64,000 nt of DNA, taken from positions 928,001 to 992,000 of the forward strand of contig OZ220732.1 of the NCBI GenBank assembly GCA_965116905.1, read 5' to 3'. Of the stretch, positions 6,816 through 24,982 are shown one piece after another. This DNA comes from Longimicrobiales bacterium (lineage in GTDB: Bacteria > Gemmatimonadota > Gemmatimonadetes > Longimicrobiales > Gaopeijiaceae). Every line of letters starts with the position of its first letter. The stretch's first letter is position 1. A program made the position numbers and the translations under genes. A model generated the notes under the pieces. It searched no databases and was not told the origin of the DNA. It saw only the letters and a program-made list of their open reading frames with translations.

Positions 6816-6968
6816 AAGCTACTTTGCGCCGTGTCCGCCTGTTTCCTATCGTTGAGGTCGCCCACGGGCATGCGGGTCCGTGCATCACCTTGAAGCGGGA
6901 GGGACAGGGAAGCGATGAGCCCCGGGAGAGGGAGCACAGGGAGCGGCAATAACCCGGCCTGGCGACGC

Positions 6969-8708
6969 ATGAGACACCTCTCGCTGCCCGCGGCACTGAC
7001 GCCGTTGGCGTTGTTCCTTTCCCCGGCTTTTGCTCCAGCGGCCTCCGCCCAGGAGTCAGTCTCCGACACCGCCAACACCGGCATCCCCGTCACCGACCAG
7101 CTCGTCATCGAGAGCTGCGACCGCTGCCACGCCGTCGACGACGACGGCATGATGACGCGCGTCTCGTACATGCGGAAGACGCCCGAGGGCTGGCAGCAGT
7201 CGATCCGCCGCATGGTGACCCTGAACGACGCGGAGCTGGACGCCGAGACCGCGCGCGACATCGTCCGCTACCTCTCCGACAGCCACGGACTGGCGCCCGA
7301 GGAACTCCGGCCGGGCCGGTTCGAAGTGGAGCGCCGACTGATCGATTGGTCGTACGAGGAGTCGCATGAGGGGGATGAGGACGTCGATCGGGTGTGCAGC
7401 AGCTGTCACTCGATGGGACGGGTCGTCATCCAGCGCAGGACGAAGGAGGAGTGGGATCTCCTCATGGCCATGCACCGGGGCTATTATCCGCTTTCCGACA
7501 CGCAGGGGTTCCGCCGCTTCGGCCCGCCCGCGCCGGGCGCGTCCGATACCAGCCATCCGATGGACAAGGCGGTGGCCGAGCTGTCCGGGAAGTTCCCGCT
7601 GACGACCGCGCAGTGGACTTCGTGGGCGGCGACGATGCGGCCGCCGCGAATCGCTGGCACGTGGGCGCTGAAGGGGCACGATCCCGGACGCGGCCCGATC
7701 TACGGCACGGTCGAGATCTCGGAAGCGGCCGACGGGGCCGACTTCACGACCCGGGTTCGATACGCGTACGCGCGTTCGGGCGAGCAGGTGGAGCGCGAGG
7801 GCCGCGCGATCGTCTACACGGGCTACCAGTGGCGCGGCCGTTCGTTCGAGGACGGCGACGAGGCGACGTCGCTGCGCGAAGTCATGATGGTCGAGCGCGG
7901 CTGGGGCGAGATCAACGGCCGCTGGTTCGCCGGCGACTACGACGAGTTCGGCCCCGACGTGACGCTGTTGCGCGCCGACGGCCCGGTCGTGCTGGGTCTG
8001 CACCCCGTCGCCCTGCGTTCGGGCAGCAGCGCGACGGTGACGGTGCATGGCGTGAACCTGCCCACCGGCCTGGGCGCCGCGGACCTGGACCTGGGGCCCG
8101 GCGTCGAGGTCGTGAGCGTCACCCGCAGCGACTCCGAGGTGCTGGCCGCCGAGGTCACCGCGGGCGACGATGCCGCGGTCGGCGCCCGCGACGTGTTCCT
8201 CGCGGGCCGTCCGGTGCCCGGCCACCTGACCGTGTACGAGACCGTCGACCGGATCCTGGTCACGCCCGAGGCGGGCATGGCGCGGCTCGGCGGCGGCGCA
8301 TTCCCGAAGGGCTTCGCGCAGTTCGAGGCCACCGCCTTCAGCGACGGCCCCGACGGCAAGCCCGAGACGGACGACGACCTGAATCTCGGCTTCGTCGACG
8401 TCGAATGGTCGATGGAAGAGTACTCCGCGATCTTCGACGACGACGACATCGAATACGTGGGCACGCTGGGCGCTGACGGCCTCTTCCAGCCGGCGCTGGA
8501 CGGCCCCAATCCGGACCGCGACGGCCTGCGCAACAACGTCGGCGACGTCTGGACGGTGGCGACCTACCGCGGCCCCGACGGCAAGGAGGTGCGCGGACGC
8601 GCCCACCTGATCGTCACGGTGCCCCTCTACATGCGCTGGGAGCCGTGGCGGGTGCAGGAGATGCCGCTCCCGCGGCGGCGGACCTCGGACATGGGGAACG
8701 AGCGATGA
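6969..8708 (+). CDS. qhpA: Quinohemoprotein amine dehydrogenase alpha subunit (diheme c)
   Basis: Signal peptide, CDRCH and CSSCH heme motifs, RKTPEGW, C-terminal GPNP..NNVG..LIVTV. Confidence 0.95.
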   Translation: MRHLSLPAALTPLALFLSPAFAPAASAQESVSDTANTGIPVTDQLVIESCDRCHAVDDDGMMTRVSYMRKTPEGWQQSIRRMVTLNDAELDAETARDIVRYLSDSHGLAPEELRPGRFEVERRLIDWSYEESHEGDEDVDRVCSSCHSMGRVVIQRRTKEEWDLLMAMHRGYYPLSDTQGFRRFGPPAPGASDTSHPMDKAVAELSGKFPLTTAQWTSWAATMRPPRIAGTWALKGHDPGRGPIYGTVEISEAADGADFTTRVRYAYARSGEQVEREGRAIVYTGYQWRGRSFEDGDEATSLREVMMVERGWGEINGRWFAGDYDEFGPDVTLLRADGPVVLGLHPVALRSGSSATVTVHGVNLPTGLGAADLDLGPGVEVVSVTRSDSEVLAAEVTAGDDAAVGARDVFLAGRPVPGHLTVYETVDRILVTPEAGMARLGGGAFPKGFAQFEATAFSDGPDGKPETDDDLNLGFVDVEWSMEEYSAIFDDDDIEYVGTLGADGLFQPALDGPNPDRDGLRNNVGDVWTVATYRGPDGKEVRGRAHLIVTVPLYMRWEPWRVQEMPLPRRRTSDMGNER

Positions 8709-10195
8709 GCGCCGGGGCCCCGACCGCCACGCCGGACACCGCCGGCAACGGCGCGACCGCCGCCGACCCCGTCTTCCTCGCCCAGCGCGAGTTCCACCCC
8801 TTCGAGGCGGCGGGCGAGACGTTCCTCTACCTGGTGCCGTCGGCCGCCGTCTTCTACCTCGACGAGCCGTCCGTCGCGGTCCTCCAGGCCCTCGACACGG
8901 GCGCCGCGAGCGAAGACGACCTGGTCACGGCGCTCGCCCCACGCTTCGGCGAACCCGCCGTGCGGCGCAGCCTGGCCGAGCTGGTGCGGGTGCAGGCGAT
9001 CGGCCTCACCACAACCCCGAAACAGACCTTCCCGCGGGTGCTGCCGCAGGCGGATTTCCCGCTCACCACGATGGTCCTCAACGTCACCAACAAGTGCAAC
9101 CTGGCGTGCACGTACTGCTACGAGTACGGCGAGGACAAGATCGTCGACACCACGTGCGACCCCGCGCCCAACTACATGAGCGAGGAGACCGCGCGGAAGA
9201 GCGTCGACTTCATGTTCGAGCAGTCGGGCGATCTGCCGGTCGCGCACCTCACCTTCTTCGGCGGCGAGACGCTGCTCAACTTCAAGGTGCTGCGGAACAC
9301 GGTGGCGTATGCGCGCGAGCGCGCCGTGGAGTTGGGGAAGGACGTCGATTTCTCGCTGACCACCAACGGCACGCTGCTGCGCGACAAGGTCATCGACTGG
9401 CTGGCCGAGAATCGGATCGGCGTCACGGTCAGCATCGACGGGCCGAAGGAGATGCAGGACAAGTTCCGCGTCTTCAAGAACGGCATGGGCAGCTACGACT
9501 ACGCCCTGCCGAAGATCAAGCGCCTGCTGGAGCGCCACCGTACGCGTCCGATCGGCGCCCGGGTGACGCTCACCCGCCAGACGCTCGACGTGCCGCGCAT
9601 CTTCCACCATCTGCGCGACGAGGTGGGGTTCTGGGAGGTGGGGTTCGCTCCCGTGACGACCGCCGACGGGCGGGGTTACGCGATTCAGGACGCCGGCTTC
9701 GACCGCATGCTGGGCCAGTTCGAGGAGCTGGCGCAGGAGTTCCTCGAGTTCGCGGTCGACGACCGGCACCACGGGTTCTCGAACGTCAAGGACACGATCG
9801 AGGAGATCCACAAGGGCGTCAGCAAGGCCTTCCCCTGCGGCGCCGGGCTGGGGCTGATGGGCGTGGCCACCGACGGCGACGTCGCGCTCTGCCACCGGTT
9901 CGCGGGATCGGACGACCACAGCATCGGGTCGGTGCACACCGGACTCGACCGCAAGCGCCAGTTCGAGTTCCTCGGACACCATCACGTGGCCAACAAGACG
10001 GACTGCAACACCTGCTGGGCGCGGCCGCTGTGCGCCGGCGGCTGCTATCACGAGGCGCACGTGCGCTACGGCGACACGGGCGTGGCGAACCTGCACTACT
10101 GCGACTGGATCCGGAGCTGGACCAACACCTGCCTGGAGGTCTACGGCGAGATCGCGGTCAAGAACCCGGGGTACCTGGAGCAGTTCGAATCATGA
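8705..10195 (+). CDS. qhpD: Radical SAM/SPASM thioether-forming maturase
   Basis: CNLACTYC, FFGGE, SPASM Cys (CGAG, CHRF, CNTC..C.GGC); N-terminal RRE-like region; ATGA overlap with qhpA. Confidence 0.95.
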   Translation: MSAGAPTATPDTAGNGATAADPVFLAQREFHPFEAAGETFLYLVPSAAVFYLDEPSVAVLQALDTGAASEDDLVTALAPRFGEPAVRRSLAELVRVQAIGLTTTPKQTFPRVLPQADFPLTTMVLNVTNKCNLACTYCYEYGEDKIVDTTCDPAPNYMSEETARKSVDFMFEQSGDLPVAHLTFFGGETLLNFKVLRNTVAYARERAVELGKDVDFSLTTNGTLLRDKVIDWLAENRIGVTVSIDGPKEMQDKFRVFKNGMGSYDYALPKIKRLLERHRTRPIGARVTLTRQTLDVPRIFHHLRDEVGFWEVGFAPVTTADGRGYAIQDAGFDRMLGQFEELAQEFLEFAVDDRHHGFSNVKDTIEEIHKGVSKAFPCGAGLGLMGVATDGDVALCHRFAGSDDHSIGSVHTGLDRKRQFEFLGHHHVANKTDCNTCWARPLCAGGCYHEAHVRYGDTGVANLHYCDWIRSWTNTCLEVYGEIAVKNPGYLEQFES

Positions 10196-10211
10196 GGAAG
10201 GAGGCGGACAA

Positions 10212-10631
10212 GTGGACCACCTGAAAGCCATCAACCAGAAGGCGCGGCGGATCCAGGAGCATGTGGCGGCGCCGAACGGCGGGTCGGCCCCGGGGAGCGC
10301 TCCAGTGGCCGCGAACGGCGGCCCCGCCGACGCGCCGGCCAGCCCCGCCACCAGCGGCGACGGCGACCTCGACGTCGTCGGCCTGGAAAGCCGCGAGGGG
10401 CCGAACATCCCGCTGGGGTGCTCGCTCGTGTTCGCTCCCGGGTGGGAGGTGGACTCCACCGGGGGGACCGCCGGACTCTGTCAGCCCGTCGAACGCGACC
10501 TCTTCGATTGCCACCTGGCCTGCTTCTGGCCCGCCCACGTCCCGGACCAGCTCAACCACGCGCCGGACTGGACCGGCAAGTGTGCCGCTGCGCAGAAGGA
10601 CTGGCGCAAGATCGACCTGATCTTCCCGTGA
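10212..10631 (+). CDS. qhpC: QHNDH gamma subunit precursor (CTQ cofactor peptide)
   Basis: Leader MDHLKAINQKARR; core GCSLVFAPGWEVD..LCQPVERDLFDCHLACFWPAHVPD..DWRK. Confidence 0.95.
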   Translation: MDHLKAINQKARRIQEHVAAPNGGSAPGSAPVAANGGPADAPASPATSGDGDLDVVGLESREGPNIPLGCSLVFAPGWEVDSTGGTAGLCQPVERDLFDCHLACFWPAHVPDQLNHAPDWTGKCAAAQKDWRKIDLIFP

Positions 10632-11737
10632 TGCGCCCGGGTCTGCTGCTTCTGACCGCCGGGCTTGTCGCCCTCTCGGGTGGCCTCGGCTCCAGCCCCG
10701 CCCACGCCCAGGGCGGCGGCAACGGCGTCATCTACATGGCGGCGTACGACCATTCGATCAAGGTCATCGACGAGAATTCGCTCGAGATCGTGGACGAGTT
10801 CGAGACTTCGATCGGGATCCCGATCGGGCTGACGCTGTCCGCCAACCACGAGCGCATCTACGTGCGCGACGCCGAGTTCGAGGAGATCGAGATCTTCGAC
10901 GTGGCCACCCGCCAGTCGCTCGACAGCTTTACCCTGAGCCGCGGGGACCGGAAGGTGCGGATCTGGGGGATGGAGGTCGATCCGGCCGAGGAGTTCGTCG
11001 TCCTCAACACCATGCGGTACACGAAGCGCATCGACCGGTGGGAGATCGACGAGGCGGTGCTGCTCAAGTACGACCTGGAGGAGAAGCAGGTCACCGACAC
11101 GATTCCCTGGCCGGAGGGTGAAGGCGGTCGCAGAGCGCGCCTCATGTTCTCGCCGGAGGGGGAATACCTGTACTTCTTCAGCCGGGGCAGCATCATCGTC
11201 CTCGAGACCGAGGGATTCACGGAAGTGGACCGCTGGGACCTCTCGCGTCCGCTCGAAGAGGGACTGGGCCGCTTCAGCTTCGGGTTCCCCACGAGCCTCC
11301 ACGATGAACGGGGATTCCACACCGGCCTCTTCAACTTCACCGACCCCGTGCAGAACCGCCGCATGATGGGGATCGCGCGCGTCAACCTGGCGGAGCGTGA
11401 CGTCGACTTCTTCACCCTGGGGCCGAGCTCTCCGGTCAGCTTCCGCCTCGCGCCCGGCGGCAACAAGGGCTACGGCCTGGTGCAGCAGATCGGGAACTAC
11501 GAGTTCTGGACCTTCGACCTGGAAGGGCGGCGCGTCGAGAACCGCCAGCGCTTCGCGGGACGACCGCGCATGGGCCTGGAGGTCAGTTCCAACGGCGAGT
11601 TGCTGTACATCTACAACGCCGGCGCGACGATCGACGTCTACGACGCCGACACCTACGAGTTCATCCGGACCGTGACCTTCGACGCGGATATGACAAGCTT
11701 TGTCATGATTCCGGAGGGGACGGGGCGGGCGGGGTAG
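10631..11737 (+). CDS. qhpB: QHNDH beta subunit (beta-propeller)
   Basis: Signal peptide ending AHA-Q, YVTN-like repeats, canonical position after qhpC. Confidence 0.85.
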   Translation: MRPGLLLLTAGLVALSGGLGSSPAHAQGGGNGVIYMAAYDHSIKVIDENSLEIVDEFETSIGIPIGLTLSANHERIYVRDAEFEEIEIFDVATRQSLDSFTLSRGDRKVRIWGMEVDPAEEFVVLNTMRYTKRIDRWEIDEAVLLKYDLEEKQVTDTIPWPEGEGGRRARLMFSPEGEYLYFFSRGSIIVLETEGFTEVDRWDLSRPLEEGLGRFSFGFPTSLHDERGFHTGLFNFTDPVQNRRMMGIARVNLAERDVDFFTLGPSSPVSFRLAPGGNKGYGLVQQIGNYEFWTFDLEGRRVENRQRFAGRPRMGLEVSSNGELLYIYNAGATIDVYDADTYEFIRTVTFDADMTSFVMIPEGTGRAG

Positions 11738-11768
11738 GGGGCCGGGCGTCGGCCGGAGGCGCGCTAGA

Positions 11769-13418
11769 ATGGCCATCCTGGACCCCGAACTCCGCCGCGG
11801 CCTCGCCTACGTCCTCCCCTACCGAGGCCGGCTTGCCGTCATCCTTGGTCTCAACCTCGCCGGGACCGCGCTCGCCCTCTATGTACCGTACCTGACCCGC
11901 ACCCTGGTCGACGATGCGCTCCTGGGCGGCGATCTCGACGCTCTCATCCGTGTGGTCGGGCTCTTCCTCGCCGTCACCGCCGCCAGCTTCGGCCTGAACG
12001 TGGCCAGCGGGCTTCGGTACACGAAGGTTTCAGCTGAAATCCTCTTCGACATGCGGCTCGCGGTCTACCGGCACCTGCAGCGACTGTCGCCGCGCTTCTT
12101 CGCGCGCACTCCGCTCGGCGAGATCATGTCGCGGATCAACAACGACGTGGGCGAGATCCAGCGCGTGCTCGCGGACACGGCGCTGGCGTGGGTGGGGAAC
12201 GTGGCGTTTCTGGTGGGGACGGTCGGCATGCTCCTGTGGCTGGACTGGCGGCTGTTCCTGGCGGCCGCGGTGCTGCTGCCCCCCGCGATCTGGGCGCTGG
12301 TGCGGTACCGGCGGCGGCTCGAGGTGCGCGTCCGCGTCATGCGAGAGCGTAGCGCCGACATCGGCACCTTCCTGATCGAGACCCTGCGCGGCGTACGCCT
12401 GGTCGCGGCTTCGAACGCGGCCGAACGCGAGGCGGTCCGATTCCGCGAGCGCAACGACTCGTTCGTGGACTCGCTGATGAAGATGCAGCGCCTGCGCTAC
12501 CTGGCGGGTGGACTGCCGGGACTGCTGCTGTCGGCGAGCACGGCGGTAGTGTTCCTCTACGGCGGGTCGCGCGTGATCGGCGGCGTGATCACGCTGGGCA
12601 CGTTCACAGCGTTCATGGCGTACCAGATGCGCCTGATCGGGCCGGTGCAGGGCCTCATGGGGCTGTACACGGGGATCGCGACCGCGCGGGTCTCGCTGCG
12701 CCGCGTGCACGAGCTGCTCGACGAGCCGATCGAGGTGGCCGACGCCGAATCGCCGGCCGCGCTGGGTCCCGTGCGCGGGGAGCTGGTCTTCGAGGACGTG
12801 TCGTGCGGGCACGGCCGTGGCGGGGCGGTGCTGGAGGGGTTCGGGATGACCGTCGCGCCGGGCGAGGTGGTGGCTCTGGTGGGTCCTTCAGGGGGAGGCA
12901 AGTCGACGGTGGCCGACCTTATTGTCCGCCATCTCGACCCCGATTCCGGGCGTGTCCTGCTGGACGGGCGAGATGTTCGGGACATCGGCCTGGCGGAGTT
13001 GCGTGCAAATGTCGCGCTGGTCGACCAGACCGCGTTCGTCTTCAACACCTCGATCCTGGAAAACGTGCGGTACGCGCGGCCGGACGCCGACGAGGCCGCG
13101 GTGATGCAGGCCGTCGAGCGCGCGGGGCTGGGCGACTTCGTGGCGGGCCTCCCCGACGGCCTCGGCACGGTGGTGGGCGAGGAAGGCCGGCAGCTTTCCG
13201 CGGGGGAACGGCAGCGCGTGGCGATCGCGCGGGCCCTGCTGGCCGATCCGGCCGTGCTGGTGCTGGACGAGGCGACGAGCGCGCTGGACATGGAAGCCCA
13301 GGCGCACGTGGTGGGCGCGTATCGCGAAGTCATGAGGGGGCGGACGACCGTGTTGATCACGCACCGGGAAGAGATGCTGCGGGGGGTGGATCGGGTGGTG
13401 GAGGTGGGGCGTGGGTAG
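11769..13418 (+). CDS. qhpF: ABC exporter, fused TMD-NBD (QhpF-like)
   Basis: TM domain plus GPSGGGKS, LSAGERQR, LDEATS; follows qhpB. Confidence 0.8.
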   Translation: MAILDPELRRGLAYVLPYRGRLAVILGLNLAGTALALYVPYLTRTLVDDALLGGDLDALIRVVGLFLAVTAASFGLNVASGLRYTKVSAEILFDMRLAVYRHLQRLSPRFFARTPLGEIMSRINNDVGEIQRVLADTALAWVGNVAFLVGTVGMLLWLDWRLFLAAAVLLPPAIWALVRYRRRLEVRVRVMRERSADIGTFLIETLRGVRLVAASNAAEREAVRFRERNDSFVDSLMKMQRLRYLAGGLPGLLLSASTAVVFLYGGSRVIGGVITLGTFTAFMAYQMRLIGPVQGLMGLYTGIATARVSLRRVHELLDEPIEVADAESPAALGPVRGELVFEDVSCGHGRGGAVLEGFGMTVAPGEVVALVGPSGGGKSTVADLIVRHLDPDSGRVLLDGRDVRDIGLAELRANVALVDQTAFVFNTSILENVRYARPDADEAAVMQAVERAGLGDFVAGLPDGLGTVVGEEGRQLSAGERQRVAIARALLADPAVLVLDEATSALDMEAQAHVVGAYREVMRGRTTVLITHREEMLRGVDRVVEVGRG

Positions 13419-16500: not shown

Positions 16501-16959
16501 TCACCCCTTTGGCAGCGAGCCCGACTCCTCGCCGGAGCCCAACGCGCGCCCGGCCTTGCGGGCGACCAGCAGGCTGGCCACGCCGCCTCCGGCGCCGAGG
16601 AGTGGCAGAATGCTGAACGGGACGATGGCGCCCCCGTTGGGCCAGTCCCCCCAACTGCCGCCCACAACGAGTCCTGCCAGCAGGAGGCCGCCCAGCACGC
16701 CCACCGATGCGACTCGTGAGTAGGAAAGCTCGTCCAACGAGCGGCCGCGCGCCTCGATCGCCAACATGGCCGAGAAGCTCGTACCGATCCCGACGCCCCA
16801 CACGGTCCCCGCAATGATCATGAACCCCAGCTCATCCTCGGCACCGGGAAAGAACACCTTGCTGGCCAAAGCGACCAGTGAGAAGAACCCCGCGCCGACA
16901 GCGCCGAAGGTCAGCCCCATGCCGAGGACACCACGAACGACTTTCTTCCAACGCGACAC
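16501..16959 (-). CDS. Hypothetical 4-TM membrane protein
   Basis: Four Gly-rich hydrophobic segments; AGGAGG before GTG 16959. Confidence 0.7.
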   Translation of the reverse strand: MSRWKKVVRGVLGMGLTFGAVGAGFFSLVALASKVFFPGAEDELGFMIIAGTVWGVGIGTSFSAMLAIEARGRSLDELSYSRVASVGVLGGLLLAGLVVGGSWGDWPNGGAIVPFSILPLLGAGGGVASLLVARKAGRALGSGEESGSLPKG

Positions 16960-17358
16960 GGCGGCCTCCTGCTTGCAGTGATCTGGTGCCATGGAGGATA
17001 CCTGAGATAGGGTCGGGCGTCCAAGCGGTTGCCAGCGCGGTAAGGCCCAGGGCAGCGGCAGATTCAGGCAGCACCTAAGGCGGTGACACTCGCCGAATTG
17101 ACGCCACCCGTGCGGGACGGCTGCGAGGCGAGAAAGCGCAGCAGTTTCCCGCAGGTCCGCTTCTTCAGTGGCCGCCGACCGGACCCCGCAGCCCGGTGCA
17201 CCTGAGAGCTGCGTTGCACGTTTTCCCGACTGGGACTGTTAACTCTATCGCACAGGGGAGGTGCGGACGCTGGAAGCTCTCTTCCGAGCCTCAGTTTCCC
17301 GTAGATCCCTGACTCGGGGGAAACGCCCTCGTAGACACTCACAAGAGGAGGAAGCATC

Positions 17359-17640
17359 ATGACGTACCGCCAGTTGTTCTCGCTTTTGCCGGACTTTCCG
17401 AAGCCGCTGAGGGTCGGAGTGTCACTCCTTGCCGTCCTTGCGACGGCGGCGGGAGCTGGTACCCTCGCGACATCCCCGGCTGCGGCTGCAGTCGGTTCAC
17501 CCTTCTTGGATTGCACGTCAGAACAGGTGGACATAGGGTTTGAGGTCATCGGTCGAGAGTGCGGTGGTCCGGGTGTGGGCATCATCCATTGTCACTCGAG
17601 CGGTAGCGTGATCGTCGAGGATGTCCATTGCCTTGCATGA
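17359..17640 (+). CDS. Small secreted 4-Cys peptide (paralog 1)
   Basis: Strong RBS GAGGAGG, hydrophobic leader ending PAAA, core C-x15-C-x9-C-x12-C. Confidence 0.8.
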   Translation: MTYRQLFSLLPDFPKPLRVGVSLLAVLATAAGAGTLATSPAAAAVGSPFLDCTSEQVDIGFEVIGRECGGPGVGIIHCHSSGSVIVEDVHCLA

Positions 17641-17857
17641 GGCCTGTTCGGCCTGTCTTGCGTGAGAGCGACCGTTAGCCGCGGTCGCAGCTGCGTGGGA
17701 CAACCTGTGCCCGCTCCCGCTTCCGCAGCCTGTGTCCAAGCGGAAACCGCGCTGCGTGAAGTGGGAGCGGGAGCTTCATGCTCAGTAACGTGACTCCTGT
17801 CGCATCGGTCTGCCGGAGCAGCCCATTGCCATTGTATGGAAGGATGAGCGAAACACA

Positions 17858-18547
17858 GTGAATAGAGAAAAGACCTCTTCTGTCATCGCGAACCTCATGG
17901 TCATTGTGAGTGTTTGTTGCGCGGTTGTTATGACGACCGCCGTCTTACGGCGCGCGCCTGGCACTACGGAATCGATCCAACCGCGCGAGCCTGCGACCAC
18001 CGGTACTCAAGAGATCCAGGATTGGGCTGCACTCGCGTCAGGTGGTCACGATCTTGGACCAGAAGACGCGCCTGTGTGGATTGTCGTATTCTCGGACTTC
18101 CAATGTCCAGCATGTCGCGCTCTAGCTACACGGCTCCGCGCGCTCAATTCAACGCAGCCTGCTCTTGCTAGGGTCTTCTATCGACACTTCCCCCTGCCGT
18201 CGCACGTACATGCTGAGGAGGCAGCTTTGGCAAGCGAGTGCGCCGCAGCGCTAGGGCGCTTCCTGGCCTTTCACGATGTCCTGTTCTACGAGCAAGAGGT
18301 AATCGGCCACATGCCTTGGCAGTACTTTGGCGATCTCGCCAACCTAAACGACATTCCCGCATTCACGGAGTGTATCCGAGTGGGCGAGCCGATGACCCGT
18401 ATCGTAGACGATCGGCGAACAGGCGAACTCATGGGGATTGATCGTACGCCCACTTGGCTCATCAATGGTACCGTGGTTGTTGGAGTCCCATCGCTATCGC
18501 GCATTAAGGACTTGATCGCCCAGCATCGCACGGCGGATCCGCAATGA
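17858..18547 (+). CDS. DsbA-like thiol-disulfide oxidoreductase (Thioredoxin_4 type), membrane-anchored
   Basis: FSDFQCPAC, YRHFPL, RTPT cis-Pro loop. Confidence 0.88.
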   Translation: MNREKTSSVIANLMVIVSVCCAVVMTTAVLRRAPGTTESIQPREPATTGTQEIQDWAALASGGHDLGPEDAPVWIVVFSDFQCPACRALATRLRALNSTQPALARVFYRHFPLPSHVHAEEAALASECAAALGRFLAFHDVLFYEQEVIGHMPWQYFGDLANLNDIPAFTECIRVGEPMTRIVDDRRTGELMGIDRTPTWLINGTVVVGVPSLSRIKDLIAQHRTADPQ

Positions 18548-18602
18548 GGTGATATCGCGATGTCCGTCTGCAGTAACCCACAAGGAAGAAAGGCAAAACA
18601 AA

Positions 18603-19097
18603 ATGACTGATCGAAGAATCGTCGCGGTGCGGCGCCCCATGTTGTCGTGGGCTTACCTCGCTGTAACGCTGCTCTTAGTCGGCGCTGAGAACGCTTCTGC
18701 CCAACAGCAGATCAGCATTCCACGAAACCCAGCCAATGGGTACGTCGGCCTGAGCTACCGGCCAACGGACTTCACGGAAGCTGACGTACAGAAGCGTGCC
18801 CTTCCATTCGTAATCGCCGTGGTTCCTTGCTCGCCGGCCCATTTTGCTGGAGTAGAGCCTGGCGATGTCCTTCTTCGGGTAAACGACCAGGACTCGAGAG
18901 GCCGGGGGCTGTTTCGCGGGACCATTGGAACAGAGTATCAAGTGACCCTAAGACGTGCAGACGAACTGTACGACCTACGGTTTGTCCGCGTTGAGCTTCC
19001 GACACAAATGCCTGCGCCCGTGCGAACCTCTCCCATGGGATCGACGGAAGAATGGAATTGCAGTAGTTCTCAGTGGTTCGGGGCTGTGGAACAATGA
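18603..19097 (+). CDS. Secreted stand-alone PDZ-domain protein
   Basis: Signal peptide ending ASA-Q; GYVGL and SPAHFAGVEPGDVLLRVND PDZ signature. Confidence 0.8.
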   Translation: MTDRRIVAVRRPMLSWAYLAVTLLLVGAENASAQQQISIPRNPANGYVGLSYRPTDFTEADVQKRALPFVIAVVPCSPAHFAGVEPGDVLLRVNDQDSRGRGLFRGTIGTEYQVTLRRADELYDLRFVRVELPTQMPAPVRTSPMGSTEEWNCSSSQWFGAVEQ

Positions 19098-20182
19098 GAG
19101 GTTGGCTGGTACTAGCGGTGGTTGGTATGGCCGTTGGGACGTGCGAGAGTAACAGCAGCGAAAGCCACGAGAATCCGGTTGAGGTCTTCGAGATGAGGGA
19201 AGAACTCAGGATCGGGCGTGCAACTGGCGCTGGCCCGGAGGTCTTTGGGCGGATCGTGTCCCTGGCTGTCGATGACCGCGGCGCGATATACGTGGCTGAC
19301 TCGCATGGGCCGGCGATAATCGCGTTTTCCTCCGAAGGGAAGTTTGTCCGGCGCATCGGGCAGCAAGGACAGGGGCCTGGAGAGTTTGGGAGCCTTGAGG
19401 GTATCGCCTGGCAGCCAACCACTGCGACTATATGGAGCATGGACTTCACGAGGCGCACCTTAATGGGCTTCGATACACTCGGCGTGCATCGGTCTACACA
19501 CCGGTACGCGACAGAGACGATGCACTTTAGCCTACCATGGGTGGGGCGGATAGACGCATCGGGGCATCTTTATGACTTGGACCCGATGACCCATACGCAG
19601 GTGGTTAGATACCAACTATCTGTGGACACCGTAGGGCCGGTTGACAGTCTAGCTATACCGGCGGTCCGACCAGAACCGCCAACCTACACGATCCGCCGCG
19701 GGGCTCTGACGGAGCTAGCCACTGTGCCCTTCAGCCCGTGGATTGCCTGGGATGTATCGCCGCAGGGCAATGTGCTGTTGGCCAACACCTCCGTGCTTGA
19801 GATCCACGAGGTGACATTCGACGGTGACACGATCTATTCAATAGCGCTTGACCGTAGCCCGCCTCCGCTGGAGCGTCGAGTGCGTGACAGTATCGCAAGC
19901 GACATCGGAGTGCCGTCGAGATTGTTGCCGAAGCATAGGACCGCCATGGAAGACGTGGTCGTTGGATTGGACAATAGCATCTGGATTGACTTGACCGATG
20001 ACACGCAAAGCTCATGGGAAGTGTTTGACGAGAAAGGCCACCATATCGGACAGGCAACATCGCCTTTGGTCATCAACAAGAAACCCCGCCCGGTCGTCAC
20101 TATGAGGACCCTAACAGGAATCACAGAGGACGACTTAGGCGTTCAATATATTGTGCGACTAGGGATTGAATTCCCCACCTGA
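19094..20182 (+). CDS. 6-bladed beta-propeller (NHL-like) protein
   Basis: EELRIG, GQQGQGPGEF, TEDDLGVQYIVRL; ATGA overlap with PDZ gene. Confidence 0.85.
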   Translation: MRGWLVLAVVGMAVGTCESNSSESHENPVEVFEMREELRIGRATGAGPEVFGRIVSLAVDDRGAIYVADSHGPAIIAFSSEGKFVRRIGQQGQGPGEFGSLEGIAWQPTTATIWSMDFTRRTLMGFDTLGVHRSTHRYATETMHFSLPWVGRIDASGHLYDLDPMTHTQVVRYQLSVDTVGPVDSLAIPAVRPEPPTYTIRRGALTELATVPFSPWIAWDVSPQGNVLLANTSVLEIHEVTFDGDTIYSIALDRSPPPLERRVRDSIASDIGVPSRLLPKHRTAMEDVVVGLDNSIWIDLTDDTQSSWEVFDEKGHHIGQATSPLVINKKPRPVVTMRTLTGITEDDLGVQYIVRLGIEFPT

Positions 20183-20321
20183 CCTGGGAAAGGAGGTGTA
20201 TAGCAAACACAGGGAGAAACGGGGAGTCGCAGTCCCTGGCTCGCGAAGGGAAGCATAGCTATCGTTGTAGTCACCCCAAAGCAGTTTGATCAAACCAATC
20301 GTTGAAAGGGAGTACATTATC

Positions 20322-20615
20322 ATGCGGAAGCTTTTTCTTGTTGACATGGCAGGCATCAAGCGCGGCGCAGCTGCAAGGTACGCTGCACTTCTAACCAGTC
20401 TGTTTACGATCGTAGGGGGTGCACAGGCTGCTGCGCCTCTTTCGGTCGCGGCGATGCCTCATTCGGAGACAGGCGCGGCCCCCAATTGCTCTGCGGCAGC
20501 CGTAGCGGCCGCTATGGGTCTCTTGTGGAAGAGGTGCGAGGGGCCGGGATCGGCGACTCTCCACTGCAGCGAAGGTGGGTCGGTTCTCTTGGAGAACGTC
20601 GAGTGTGAGGAGTAG
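20322..20615 (+). CDS. Small secreted 4-Cys peptide (paralog 2)
   Basis: AAGGGAG RBS, hydrophobic leader ending AQA, same Cys spacing and C.GPG...HC...GSV..E.V.C motif as 17359..17640. Confidence 0.8.
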   Translation: MRKLFLVDMAGIKRGAAARYAALLTSLFTIVGGAQAAAPLSVAAMPHSETGAAPNCSAAAVAAAMGLLWKRCEGPGSATLHCSEGGSVLLENVECEE

Positions 20616-20721
20616 GGCGTGAAAGGAGAGGGATCGAGCCTGGTCGTACCATGGGTGTCCCGTATCCGCCAACCAGACGGGAGGCGAAGCTCGGGACTCC
20701 GGTGGGTCTAGACCAGGAGGT

Positions 20722-20761
20722 GCATTGCCCCGTCCCCGCGAGCGCGGGGACGGGGCAATGC
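20722..20761. repeat. Perfect 19-bp inverted repeat (hairpin)
   Basis: gcattgccccgtccccgcg-ag-cgcggggacggggcaatgc; no U-tract. Confidence 0.85.
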
Positions 20762-21096
20762 TCGGATGCACGACTGCTCGCTTGGTCAGGGACGCAGGGG
20801 GCCGCTCTTCCAACCTCGCGAGAGATCTTCAGCAAGGAGAGGCGGTGGCCCGAAAGACGCTGCTCGGCGCGGCAAGAGTCGAGAGTGTTCGCCGGCTGAA
20901 GTACGGACTCGGCCGGAGCCAGGGGAGATCGCGGTCATTCTCGCGATCTCCCGCACCACGGTCGGCAGCTAGGTCCGGCGCGGGAGCGACCGGGGGCTGG
21001 CGCGGCACAGGGGCGTGACGTTTCAGCTCCTGATGGTACGAGTGCCGCGCGCCCCCGGACGGATATCAGTACAGCCGCTTCTGCGACCACTACCGC

Positions 21097-21260
21097 GTGG
21101 GGCTCGGTCGCCTTGAACCCGATGTCAACCGAACATACCATGACCTGGCGGTGCACGACCGGATGGCGGTGCTGCCCGCCCGGCCGCGCTCGCCCCAGGA
21201 CAAGGCGAAAGTGGAGGCGACCGTCCAGAACGTGGGACCATGGCTTCTTGGCATCCACTC
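21097..21260 (+). mobile_element. IS21-family transposase (IstA) remnant
   Basis: YHDLAVH..AVLPARPRSPQDKAKVEATVQ resembles the IstA C-terminal DDE segment; no full gene or istB. Confidence 0.7.
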
Positions 21261-21853
21261 GGGGTGCTACCGGGCCTGCTGGGTGCCGGCCCGGAACCCG
21301 CTCGAAGTGTTGGCGGTCGAGAAAGGCGAGAGGATTGATCGGGACATGCTCGAGGAGGCGCCTAGGTCTGGTCGACCTCTCCCTCGACCGGCAGGTCATC
21401 ATGATTGGCCTGTGCGTCGACAGGCTTTTTCCGGAGATCGGCCGCGCGCAGCTCGATCTGTCGTACCTGATACATCGGGGGCTCCATGTACGAGGGACTC
21501 CGCCTCACGGGCGTTCCCGGAAGGTATCACGCTGACCGGACTCCCTGTTTCCGTAGCTCGTCAGTCTTTGATTCGGGTCTCAACTCGAACTGTTCGAGCT
21601 TCTCGAATATGGCCCTCTCCCCCCTGATCGTGGTGGGCGGAGTGCCGGTGAAGGTCAGGGCCCAACTAACCTCTTAGCGGTTCGTCGCCAAGCCGGGATC
21701 GTCGGGTGTCCGAGGGGCACACCAACGTTCTCACTTGAGCGCCACCCGACCTCACGCTGCACAGGCGTTAGCGGGATAGGTCCCCAAGGCATCACGATGG
21801 ATGGCGCTGGGAAGTCCACAAGCGCGAGGAGTCAGAGGGGGTCGAGGACCTTC

Positions 21854-21962
21854 TCCAACGAGCGGCCGCGCGCCGCGACCGCTAGCATGGCCGAGAAGCT
21901 CGTACCGATCCCGACGCCCCAAACGATCCCCGCGATGATCATGAACCCCGACTCATCCTCGG
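21854..21962 (-). pseudogene. Internal fragment duplicate of the membrane-protein gene 16501..16959
   Basis: 109 nt with 9 mismatches to 16733..16841; flanks not homologous. Confidence 0.85.
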
Positions 21963-22014
21963 TGGGGAGCCCGCCGTGATTGAGAAGCTGGCCCGGCGTT
22001 GAGGGCGAATGCGG

Positions 22015-22578
22015 TTATCCGTCTCCTGCCGACAGCATGTTTTGGGCCACCACGCCGAGCTGCCGTCCGTGACCGTCGGCCACGACGCGACCTCGCCCGT
22101 CGACCGCGAAGACCCACGGCGTCCGTTTCGTAATGGCATGACCGAGGGGCTCGGCCGATGTGACGATGACGGGCCATTGTCGGTCACGGAGGTAGTCCGT
22201 CGCCCCTGGACCGGCAGCAACGGCAATGATCCGATAGCCCTTGTGTACGCTCCCTTCCAGCCAGTCAGACCAAAGGGGTGCAACACGGCGGCTATGGGCG
22301 CAGTCGGGGTCAAAGACGAGGAGGAGCGCAGGCTGCCCCGTGCCGAGCTCCTGCAACACTCCGTGGGAATCTCTCAACGACAGATCCGAAAGGTCATCTC
22401 CCCTCGTCACAAAAGGGGACGGGCCATCGGTGTGGGCCTTGACGTAAGCGAAAGCGAGGGCTTGAAGGACGGCCACGACAGCCAGGCCGGCGACGGCAAC
22501 GTGCCATGGCCCGCGCCAAGAACCTCTCCTCTCGCTCTCGGGAAGAATCTCGGCGCTCGCGGCCTCGTTCGATGACAT
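22015..22578 (-). CDS. Membrane-anchored thioredoxin-fold (TlpA/peroxiredoxin-like) protein with CxxS
   Basis: TM helix, LLLVFDPDCAHS, RTPWVFAVD. Confidence 0.75.
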   Translation of the reverse strand: MSSNEAASAEILPESERRGSWRGPWHVAVAGLAVVAVLQALAFAYVKAHTDGPSPFVTRGDDLSDLSLRDSHGVLQELGTGQPALLLVFDPDCAHSRRVAPLWSDWLEGSVHKGYRIIAVAAGPGATDYLRDRQWPVIVTSAEPLGHAITKRTPWVFAVDGRGRVVADGHGRQLGVVAQNMLSAGDG

Positions 22579-22824
22579 TGCGACCCCCCGTTGGGATTGC
22601 CAGGCAGGACAAAGGGCGCCTGCCTTCACTGTCCCTGCTAACAGGTGAGATGCCCACAGCGTGCAATCGGAGGACGTGGTAGCCAACAGGCGCGAATTGC
22701 ACGATTCCGTCCTGGGATCTGTTAGTTGATCATAAAGAGGGGAGTGACCCCTCATTCGGGGCGTGGCCCAGTGGAGTCTTTTCTGGCCCAGTTGCCTTGT
22801 TTTCTTCCCAGAAGGAGTGGAAAC

Positions 22825-23025
22825 TTGCGAGCTACCGCGATAGTGCTCATCCTGCTGAACCTTGTCCTCGGCGCGGGTCTACTGGAGTCGATCAGGAACG
22901 ACGCGACTCGAGCGCAGGGCTTCCGCAGTTGCTGCCGTGTTGCAGGTGCCGAGGCCTACTGCTGTGACCAGTGCTGTTGGTTCCGCACCGATTGTGACTT
23001 CGACAGCGATTGCCAGGATGCCTGA
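22825..23025 (+). CDS. Small secreted 8-Cys peptide (66 aa, TTG start)
   Basis: AAGGAG 7 nt before TTG; hydrophobic leader; core CC-x8-CC-x2-CC-x5-C-x5-C. Confidence 0.7.
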   Translation: MRATAIVLILLNLVLGAGLLESIRNDATRAQGFRSCCRVAGAEAYCCDQCCWFRTDCDFDSDCQDA

Positions 23026-23062
23026 CCGGTAGGAGGTCGCGGTTGATCGGGAGGCTGAACGG

Positions 23063-23866
23063 ATGACGACGACTCAGCGCCGCAGGAAACCTGTCGGCTG
23101 GGCCGGGGCCTGCTTCAGGGCCATGGCGCCTTGGCTTTTGCTGCTCGTGGGTGGCAAGGTTGTCCTGACCCAGATTTGGGCGCCGCTGGAAGAGGCGTCA
23201 TCGCTGTCTCGATGGCTTTGGCTCATCATTGATGACCTTGCCTTGGTCCTTCCGTTCCTCCTTTTCGCGGTGGGCCTTGCTCTGGGACGAGTGCTGGGGC
23301 ACTCGGGGCGAGTGGTTCGGGTCGCCGTACTGGTGGGCATGGCGGTGAGCATCCTGTCCTACAGCTTGGGTGCCTGGGCGGCGCCGGAAATCGAGGAGCG
23401 GCTTCGGGCGGCGCGGCGTGCCGACACCGTCGACACACGTCAGTTCGGAATCCCAACGCCGGTCGGCATCCTCCGCAATCTTGAATTCGTGAGGGCCAAT
23501 CCACCGCCCCAATACAGCCTTCGAACGAGCAGTCCACAGGAGTTTCCTCCCAACGTGCTGCTCTGGCGCTTGCACCAGCCACTGGCGTTCGCCGTATTCG
23601 GGATCGCCAATGTGCTCCTGGGGCTGCTGGCTTCCGAGTTGACGGTGGACCTGTCGAACCGGGTGAGGCGAAATGTGCGCCTGGCCGTGGGCGTCGGGGG
23701 CGCGATCGCGTTCCTGGCCTGCATGGTAGTGGCTTCCCCTGTCGAGCCGTTCCTGCGGGACGGCACCATGCGTTCGGGAATCGTCGGCGCGTGGCTGCCG
23801 CTCCTGATCCCGCTTGTCGAGGGCTTGGTCCTTCGGTACCTCGTCCAAAGCCGGCGGTACGGATGA
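23063..23866 (+). CDS. Hypothetical multi-pass membrane protein
   Basis: About six hydrophobic segments with a central loop; GGGAGG RBS; coupled to the ECF gene. Confidence 0.75.
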   Translation: MTTTQRRRKPVGWAGACFRAMAPWLLLLVGGKVVLTQIWAPLEEASSLSRWLWLIIDDLALVLPFLLFAVGLALGRVLGHSGRVVRVAVLVGMAVSILSYSLGAWAAPEIEERLRAARRADTVDTRQFGIPTPVGILRNLEFVRANPPPQYSLRTSSPQEFPPNVLLWRLHQPLAFAVFGIANVLLGLLASELTVDLSNRVRRNVRLAVGVGGAIAFLACMVVASPVEPFLRDGTMRSGIVGAWLPLLIPLVEGLVLRYLVQSRRYG

Positions 23867-24555
23867 CTGACACGACGTTCGGTGTCCCCCCTTCACTCTC
23901 GGACGATGTGACGCCCGCAGGGGAGAAGCCGCGCCCGTCCGATGCCGACGACATGCCGGACACAGAGGGTGCCGACGACACGCCGGACACAGAGGGTGAT
24001 GCCATTGACGGGGTGGCCTTTCGGGACGGGGACGAAGAGTGCTATCGCGCCGTCCTGGACCGTTTTGAACTCCTGATTCGCAAGGTCTTGTCGTCGTATG
24101 GAGATTGCGATGCCGACCGGCAGGACCTGTATCAGGATGTCTGCGTCCGCATTCTAGAGCAGCGCCACGGATACCGGGAGCAGGGCGCGATGGGCGGATG
24201 GATACACACGCTGGCACGTAACGTGGCCCAGAACTGGCGCGACTCGCAAATCGCACGTGAGTCGGCGCAAGACGAATATGTGGCCGCGTTCGCGCCGATC
24301 GCCGCGGCCAGGCACATCACCGAGGACCCATCGAGGCTCCTGATCCGCAAGGAGCTCCTGGCCAACGTGGAGCGGGCTCTCGACGCCATTTCGGACCAGC
24401 AGGCGAACGCGCTCAGATTGGTCCACATCGAAGGGTACAGTGTCAAGGAGGCTGCTCAGCTCCTGGGCACCAAGCCGGCGACCGTGCGATCCAACGTGCG
24501 CCATGCCAGAGAGAAACTGCGGGAACAGGCGGAGTTGAGAGATGAAATGTCCTGA
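23863..24555 (+). CDS. ECF RNA polymerase sigma factor
   Basis: DLYQDV (region 2), WIHTLARN, EGYSVKEAAQLLG..TVRSNVRHAR (region 4). Confidence 0.9.
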   Translation: MTDTTFGVPPSLSDDVTPAGEKPRPSDADDMPDTEGADDTPDTEGDAIDGVAFRDGDEECYRAVLDRFELLIRKVLSSYGDCDADRQDLYQDVCVRILEQRHGYREQGAMGGWIHTLARNVAQNWRDSQIARESAQDEYVAAFAPIAAARHITEDPSRLLIRKELLANVERALDAISDQQANALRLVHIEGYSVKEAAQLLGTKPATVRSNVRHAREKLREQAELRDEMS

Positions 24556-24982
24556 CCTGAGAACGCTGAGCCGAGTCGGTACGCCCAATGCCGATCCGGC
24601 CGTCGTGGAACACGTGGTGAGTTGCCGTTCGTGCTGGCTGGACTGGCAGATCCAGCAAGGCATGCGTTATCTGGAGGATCCGGTGGTCCAAAACGCGTCG
24701 GATGTGAACGACCGGGTGATCGCCAGGGTCCGCATCAGGGCGCGGCGTGATTCTGAGCCGCCGGCGAGGTGGCGCGATGCCGCGTTGTTCGGCGCAGTCG
24801 TCGCGATTGCGGTGCTCGCTTTCCTGTTGGCAGTTCCGGCGGCCGCAGTGGCTATACCGGTCGCCCCGGCGGTGGGGTACGCGATCCTGGCGGGTGTCCT
24901 GGGCACGCTCTACGTCAAGAAGCGGGACGAAGGTCGCGTTGCTGGCGATTCCGCCGTGGGAGCGGCAGGTCCTGATCTCTAG
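24542..24982 (+). CDS. Zinc-binding (ZAS) membrane anti-sigma factor
   Basis: HVVSCRSC (HxxxCxxC) followed by two TM helices; overlaps the sigma stop. Confidence 0.8.
   Translation: MKCPDLRTLSRVGTPNADPAVVEHVVSCRSCWLDWQIQQGMRYLEDPVVQNASDVNDRVIARVRIRARRDSEPPARWRDAALFGAVVAIAVLAFLLAVPAAAVAIPVAPAVGYAILAGVLGTLYVKKRDEGRVAGDSAVGAAGPDL

Follow-up and report, generated by a model that had tools for sequence, protein, structure and literature searches.

We analyzed a 64,000-nucleotide stretch of the genome of a Longimicrobiales bacterium (phylum Gemmatimonadota; contig OZ220732.1, positions 928,001 to 992,000; hereafter the window) that carries a block of five genes on one strand, in which two short, paralogous and probably exported four-cysteine peptides enclose a DsbA-like oxidoreductase, a stand-alone PDZ protein and a six-bladed beta-propeller. 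A preliminary description, made from the sequence by a model, had proposed this block as a new system. The five open reading frames (ORFs) that it listed, two of them with a ribosome-binding site, are all present as described:

17359..17640, + strand: peptide A, 93 amino acids (aa), predicted Sec leader, four-cysteine core (Cys 52, 68, 78, 91), net charge -6
17858..18547, + strand: DsbA-like oxidoreductase, CPAC motif, N-terminal membrane anchor, two extra cysteines; PF13462 (Thioredoxin_4, E 2.5e-15) and PF01323 (DSBA)
18603..19097, + strand: stand-alone PDZ protein of the CtpA/HtrA protease type, predicted signal peptide, two cysteines
19094..20182, + strand: DUF5128 6-bladed beta-propeller, PF17170 (E 1.4e-11), probable lipoprotein with Cys17 behind a hydrophobic leader
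20322..20615, + strand: peptide B, 97 aa, paralogue of peptide A (Cys 56, 72, 82, 95), net charge -4

Each peptide gene is preceded by AGGAGG or GGGAG, and each product has a basic N-region with a hydrophobic segment behind it, the basis of the hydropathy-based leader prediction. Peptides A and B are 31% identical (E 2e-9), show exactly the common spacing C-x15-C-x9-C-x12-C that had been reported for them, and extend two residues beyond the final cysteine. When 36,227 six-frame segments of the genome were searched for this pattern at an ORF terminus, the only two hits were peptides A and B. The oxidoreductase combines a thioredoxin fold, a CxxC motif and a membrane anchor, as expected of a DsbA-like protein, and is a predicted oxidase. 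The PDZ protein matches PF17820 (Pfam PDZ_6) at E 1.4e-5, under the curated cut-off, and its stop codon overlaps the start codon region of the propeller gene (19094 vs 19097). It is the one PDZ of this type in the genome, and a homologue of the barrel protein that accompanies related peptides elsewhere (see below) was not found there.

The block is an accessory insertion, a low-GC mobile island. The AT-richness that had been noticed by eye is borne out by a G+C content of 0.579 versus 0.677 for the genome, with only 3 of 1,291 equal-size tiles equally low, and by a G+C content at third codon positions of 0.58-0.66 versus 0.94 in the neighbouring radical SAM gene. A genome of the same genus (L201) aligns up to position 17033 and then carries about 1.1 kb that replaces window positions 17034-24980 (about 8 kb); loose ends at 17033 were also present in two publicly available DNA runs, which stem from different studies. 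Each of these runs, one of which may be the source sample, yielded a 4,109-nt contig across 16980-21088 with 0 differences, which rules out an assembly error. Chance ORFs are ruled out by the genome-wide rarity of the cysteine pattern and by the 139-cluster family described below. A scan for promoters and terminators performed no better than chance. The flanks hold the following features:

16501..17033, - strand: left flank, outside the module, membrane-protein gene together with the DNA upstream of it
20722-20761: right flank, perfect 19-bp inverted repeat
about 21115-21250: right flank, remnant of an IS21-family transposase
21854-21962: right flank, second, partial copy (109 nt, 92%) of the membrane gene from the left flank

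Two further observations concern the surroundings of the block. Window positions 6915-13418 hold an ordinary quinohemoprotein amine dehydrogenase-type cluster unrelated to the cassette (radical SAM maturase, TIGR03906; gamma subunit, PF08992; flanking subunits; ATP-binding cassette (ABC) transporter). The genome (G000) contains 46 tblastn matches (E<1e-3) to the propeller, three more of which lie within 7 kb of the cassette.

The four-cysteine peptide family

When 52 further genomes from the genus were searched with a profile built from the two peptides, clear homologues turned up in one (G074), not counting eight matches at E 0.001-0.05. In G074 three peptides lie ahead of DsbA, PDZ and propeller, with the gene order of the window. 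Further members were taken from DsbA-anchored loci, and a resulting 14-sequence profile, searched against 1.84 billion representatives and followed by clustering at 50% identity, delimited a family of 139 clusters, of which 126 have four core cysteines, 9 have six and 4 have other numbers. With a profile of 118 members, matches came from 40 of 301 genomes in the order (other types of Cys-peptide included) and from 12 of 401 in the phylum. Cassette peptides occur in six families of one class, and a related PDZ sequence is attributed to a Gemmatimonadetes bacterium.

The peptides are hypervariable. Across the 118 aligned members the four cysteines are the only invariant positions, which fits a role in recognition rather than in catalysis or metal binding. 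The motif of GPG, HC, GSV and E.V that had been taken as a shared signature is confined to the sub-branch holding peptides A and B. Before the third cysteine, histidine does not rank with the three most frequent residues, and a metal site formed by the HC motif was rejected for this lack of conservation. Cysteine spacings range over 11-16, 8-16 and 8-15 residues. The two-residue tail of peptides A and B is likewise not a family-wide feature; tails across the family measure 0-20 residues. The cores of 129 of the 139 members are net acidic, which argues against a classic cationic antimicrobial.

AlphaFold2, run on 12 cores, suggests that the peptides adopt a helix (residues 6-20) followed by a beta-hairpin (strands 24-30 and 36-43), with a predicted local distance difference test (pLDDT) score of 91.5. 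Two homologues (L127 and L130) retain only the second and fourth cysteines, which would fit a pairing of Cys2 with Cys4 and of Cys1 with Cys3.

The statement that the peptide family was unrecognised held up: peptides A and B matched nothing in Pfam or NCBIfam, and the 118 members gave no real match in these databases (five families, one member each, E 0.005-0.008). By sequence, the PDB returned matches in the leader region only (E>=0.28). With the peptide model, Foldseek gave nothing at E<=0.001; another fold search reached a best Z of 3.3, which is not significant. Scores for peptide A in the ESM Atlas were all under 0.8, and none of ten family members that we looked up bears a name. Taken together, the sequences describe a real, large and unnamed family of what are likely exported disulfide mini-proteins.

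Other Cys-rich peptides were seen along the way. Within window positions 22015-24982 a second kind of secreted peptide with the pattern CC...CC..CC (22726-23025) has a redoxin-like gene and a membrane protein as its neighbours. This kind is usually accompanied by an extracytoplasmic function (ECF) sigma gene and has four copies in the genome, the others at about 714-716 kb, 749-758 kb and 2797-2800 kb of G000:C1; the island at 749-755 kb also holds further Cys peptides, propellers and a DsbA-propeller fusion. Secreted peptides with a true CxxxC ... CxC motif occur in two genomes of family f2 (L177, 3920-4267, + strand; L185, 4024-4557, - strand) and are candidates for CS-alpha-beta defensin-like peptides of bacteria. 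Another unnamed family consists of secreted peptides with the pattern C-x7-C-x6/9-C-x11 that stand in tandem, up to four at a time (L113, L114, L118, L119, L123), and no PDZ, DsbA, propeller or barrel match was found near them.

Genomic partners of the peptides

The preliminary description had inferred that the peptides have a folding catalyst of their own and cognate binding or immunity proteins. To judge this we used 32 fetched loci from outside the training set, which were sorted by cysteine spacing into 24 with this peptide type and 8 with other types; the 24 loci are mostly from one genus and not independent. An adjacent stand-alone PDZ gene was present in 22 of the 24, the misses being one locus without PDZ and one at a contig end, and in 0 of the 8. 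DsbA was found in 12 of the 24, and the fourth partner was a barrel in 20, a propeller in 2 and not seen in 2. The near-constant partner of the peptide is therefore the stand-alone PDZ protein and not DsbA, and both DsbA and propeller were rejected as the defining partner. The neighbourhood is conserved as far as the PDZ is concerned; the catalyst, a CPAC DsbA here, is optional, and the fourth partner is interchangeable, with a barrel in place of the propeller in other families. Another six loci of this type were fetched, with some weak order-wide matches left unfetched. Three of them, from two more families, have a PDZ (L189, L191, L193), which gives 25 of 30 loci overall in which peptide and PDZ are inherited together. 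At L121 the order is peptide-PDZ-peptide-PDZ-propeller, so the pair is duplicated beside one propeller, and at L096 two PDZs surround one peptide. At L153, L154 and L156 a DsbA-DUF5128 propeller fusion directly follows peptide and PDZ, with oxidase and propeller in one chain.

Other Gemmatimonadota cassettes (L050, L054, L056, L060, L062) resemble the one in the window in having an exported Cys-rich mini-protein, a DsbA of a related subfamily, a DUF5128 propeller and a mobile context. In contrast to it, they carry peptides with 6-8 cysteines and CC motifs, and no PDZ.

Bacterial PDZ domains are known mostly as parts of proteases. The cassette PDZ shares the fold and binding loop of CtpA, HtrA and DegS proteases and of BlaR1/MecR1 (M56) sensors; unlike in these, it stands alone as a separate protein of 130-165 aa with its own leader and no protease. 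Its model (pLDDT 89; template-modelling score of about 0.6 to CtpA and DegP PDZs) assigns it to the bacterial protease-type PDZ domains by predicted fold and by binding loop. The hydrophobic-Gly-hydrophobic loop is retained, with the glycine present in 30 of 31 sequences. DegS-type PDZs read C-terminal motifs. The preliminary description had set the two-residue tails of the peptides beside the known binding of C-termini by PDZ domains. As a family-wide rule this is not supported: we found no conserved hydrophobic last residue or class motif, and in 89 of the 139 members the last residue is polar, charged, Gly or Pro. Binding through a strand or an internal segment is still compatible with the data.

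A search started from the PDZ profile (51 unseen loci in all, the best-ranked down to E 6e-22 and four weaker ones) led to 38 stand-alone PDZs and 13 that form the C-terminal domain of BlaR1/M56 proteins. Peptidase_M56 was detected in 8 of 8 proteins scanned, and a BlaI-like gene was in view in 7 of the 13 loci. In a quick tree, in which 41 of 95 forks are open, the M56-fused PDZs group with the cassette PDZs and apart from the protease PDZs of the genome (support 88), and peptide-less PDZs are interspersed among peptide-linked ones, suggesting repeated loss of the peptide. The loci with BlaI plus BlaR1/M56 and an outer PDZ are L132, L133, L145, L146, L150, L152, L160, L161, L164, L165, L168, L172 and L175; such proteins occur up to three in tandem (L145, L175), and L172 has two PDZs.

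The barrel has about 1,200 aa and is predicted to be an Oar-like protein of the TonB-dependent type, composed of a carboxypeptidase-regulatory-like domain and a barrel: all four proteins scanned matched PF25183 plus PF13620 or PF13715, some under the curated cut-offs. The plug domain PF07715 was not among the matches of these four, and the barrel gave no PDB sequence match. The last residue is F, W or L in 8 of 19 barrels. At their C-termini the barrels of L094-L131, L163 and L178 do not show a typical terminal strand; most of the 19 instead close with a conserved tail, unlike a barrel strand in appearance, whose LTxxQW motif is presumably reminiscent of Spy/CpxP chaperones. The architecture as such can serve protein export. 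In the parts of the source available to us, TonB-dependent barrels are described as usually importing and Oar of Myxococcus xanthus as exporting the protease PopC (PMC6434023). The putative cargo of the cassette barrels would likewise cross the periplasm. The cassettes differ from Oar-PopC as described there in that the Oar cargo is a protease with no PDZ or DsbA mentioned, in the LTxxQW tail, and in that the window's genome is without such a barrel.

Candidate roles of the module

We speculate that the module encodes a hypervariable peptide that is likely exported, stapled by two disulfides and bound by its own PDZ protein, probably as a strain-specific recognition signal. We assign this reading a probability of about 0.4. 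Judging from the leaders, peptides, PDZ and propeller would leave the cytoplasm by the Sec pathway. The membrane-anchored CPAC DsbA would then form the Cys1-Cys3 and Cys2-Cys4 bonds, a pairing suggested by the predicted topology and the two homologues with Cys2 and Cys4 only; where a cassette is without DsbA, the housekeeping enzyme would do so. In the periplasm the PDZ protein would capture the folded peptide, probably via its exposed last strand and with no fixed C-terminal code, and might pass it to or from the outer-membrane partner, which would be the propeller lipoprotein here and the Oar-type barrel elsewhere. The variant would then be recognised or sequestered by any cell whose PDZ fits it, even if that cell no longer has the peptide. 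We favour a polymorphic ligand that is bound by its cognate PDZ and used in recognition at strain level, because the PDZ follows this type of peptide and not propellers or barrels in general and because its lineage also provides the outer domain of signal transducers.

Several results weigh against this reading. Four loci with this peptide type are without a PDZ (L107, L180, L184, L192). In the reverse direction, 18 of the 38 stand-alone PDZs had a peptide (some broken or two-Cys), none was seen for 17, one had a remnant and two lay at a contig edge, in a count that small genes may have escaped. Within the window's family a propeller comes after the PDZ at all 21 loci, but only 14 of the 21 have a peptide ahead of it, so that in this family the PDZ is tied more closely to the propeller. 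No peptide was adjacent at any of the 13 M56-PDZ loci, and the window's genome has a single PDZ and no barrel; no signal output is thus visible here. In distance tests on 21 loci each (L058 and L103 were left out as near-copies), nearest-neighbour agreement was 14 of 21 for peptide-PDZ and peptide-barrel alike, and partial Mantel tests gave a partial r of 0.09 and 0.08, respectively, so peptide-PDZ coupling is not separable from inheritance of the whole cassette. Net charges of peptide and PDZ did not correlate (rho 0.07, n=42).

A toxin-immunity pair is a possible if doubtful alternative. The peptide would act as a narrow-range antibacterial in the periplasm of relatives, the PDZ would confer immunity, and peptide-less PDZs would be orphan immunity genes. 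The one-way dependence (peptide to PDZ in 22 of 24, PDZ to peptide in 18 of 38) is explained equally well by this and by the recognition reading. Hypervariability and the mobile low-GC island also speak for it, as do loci that retain the PDZ although an insertion sequence has displaced the peptide or the peptide is otherwise disrupted or lost (L139, L140, L162). Bacteriocin loci with a thiol oxidoreductase of their own do exist: most, not all, loci of bacteroidetocins (class IIf) place a four-cysteine peptide of about 42 residues beside one, together with a double-glycine leader, a peptidase-ABC exporter and a five-transmembrane protein, as far as the consulted parts of the source describe them (PMC6671954). 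The likeness to the cassette lies in the small peptide and the nearby oxidoreductase. The cassette differs in its Sec-type leaders, PDZ and propeller or barrel; its genes include no peptidase-ABC transporter, its leaders are not of the double-glycine type, and there is no sequence match. The acidic cores and the sharing of one PDZ between two peptides 31% alike here, and among three in G074, fit immunity less. One protein serving several divergent peptides is unusual for tight immunity. Should the peptide prove to be a bacteriocin, the module would become a variant of that known kind. We consider it somewhat unlikely that the PDZ instead serves the outer-membrane partner as a folding helper or periplasmic adaptor. 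The peptide would then be what this partner carries or binds, as in the cassettes that have Cys-peptide, DsbA and propeller but no PDZ. The constant adjacency of PDZ and propeller in the window's family, the overlap of the two genes here, the occurrence of PDZ and barrel at L128 and L131 with no peptide, the correlation of PDZ and barrel distances (r 0.48) and the barrels ending in F, W or L would all suit such a role. Yet propeller and barrel have wholly different folds and the PDZ is common to both, the genome has 46 propeller matches and one such PDZ, other peptide types have a propeller or barrel without PDZ (0 of 8; L178), and L121 duplicated the peptide-PDZ pair with a single propeller.

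Scavenging appears quite improbable; here the cell would secrete the peptide as a metal or redox carrier and take it back via the barrel or propeller, and the PDZ would shuttle it across the periplasm. The peptide is acidic and Cys-bearing, and a TonB-dependent-type barrel, for which import is the usual role, is present in 20 of 24 loci; however, no His, Met, Asp or Glu is conserved, an oxidising DsbA would tie up the cysteines, a chelator is not expected to diverge so extremely, and no ABC importer or metal regulator was seen in the loci inspected. We give least weight to an effector on a eukaryotic host that mimics defensin-like or other disulfide peptides, which seems highly improbable. The shape likeness to mytilin and AtLURE1.2 is weak (Z 2.7, within chance), and it is set against the spread over six families of one class and a PDZ partner that is of bacterial protease type and predicted to be periplasmic. 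CS-alpha-beta defensins, including the bacterial AdDLP with four cysteines, combine a helix and a beta-hairpin with disulfides, roughly the topology predicted for the cassette peptides; in the sections of the source at hand (PMC5116183) their cysteines are separated by three residues in the helix and by one in the strand, and this CxxxC/CxC motif is missing from the cassette peptides, which have acidic cores and, in peptides A and B, 15-9-12 spacing.

The recognition reading can be extended to a dedicated pathway in which DsbA staples the peptide, the solo PDZ escorts it, the barrel or propeller moves or displays it, and neighbouring cells read it with orphan PDZs and BlaR1-PDZ receptors. We regard this extension as unlikely; if true, it would mean that a Gram-negative phylum uses peptides as an identity code, in a ligand-receptor or immunity system without an earlier PDZ-based counterpart.

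The module is real, widespread in Gemmatimonadota and apparently undescribed: a literature search of articles, with supplements outside its scope, found no description of it. This claim of novelty rests on the architecture and on peptides that do not fit known families, not on function. The loci would provide many natural test cases of whether Oar-type barrels export proteins, and the peptides would offer a scaffold of 45 residues and two disulfides that is diverse in sequence and comes with candidate partners for binding. The combination of a solo PDZ, a hypervariable mini-protein and a BlaR1-type sensor domain points to an unrecognised peptide recognition system in an abundant, little-studied phylum.

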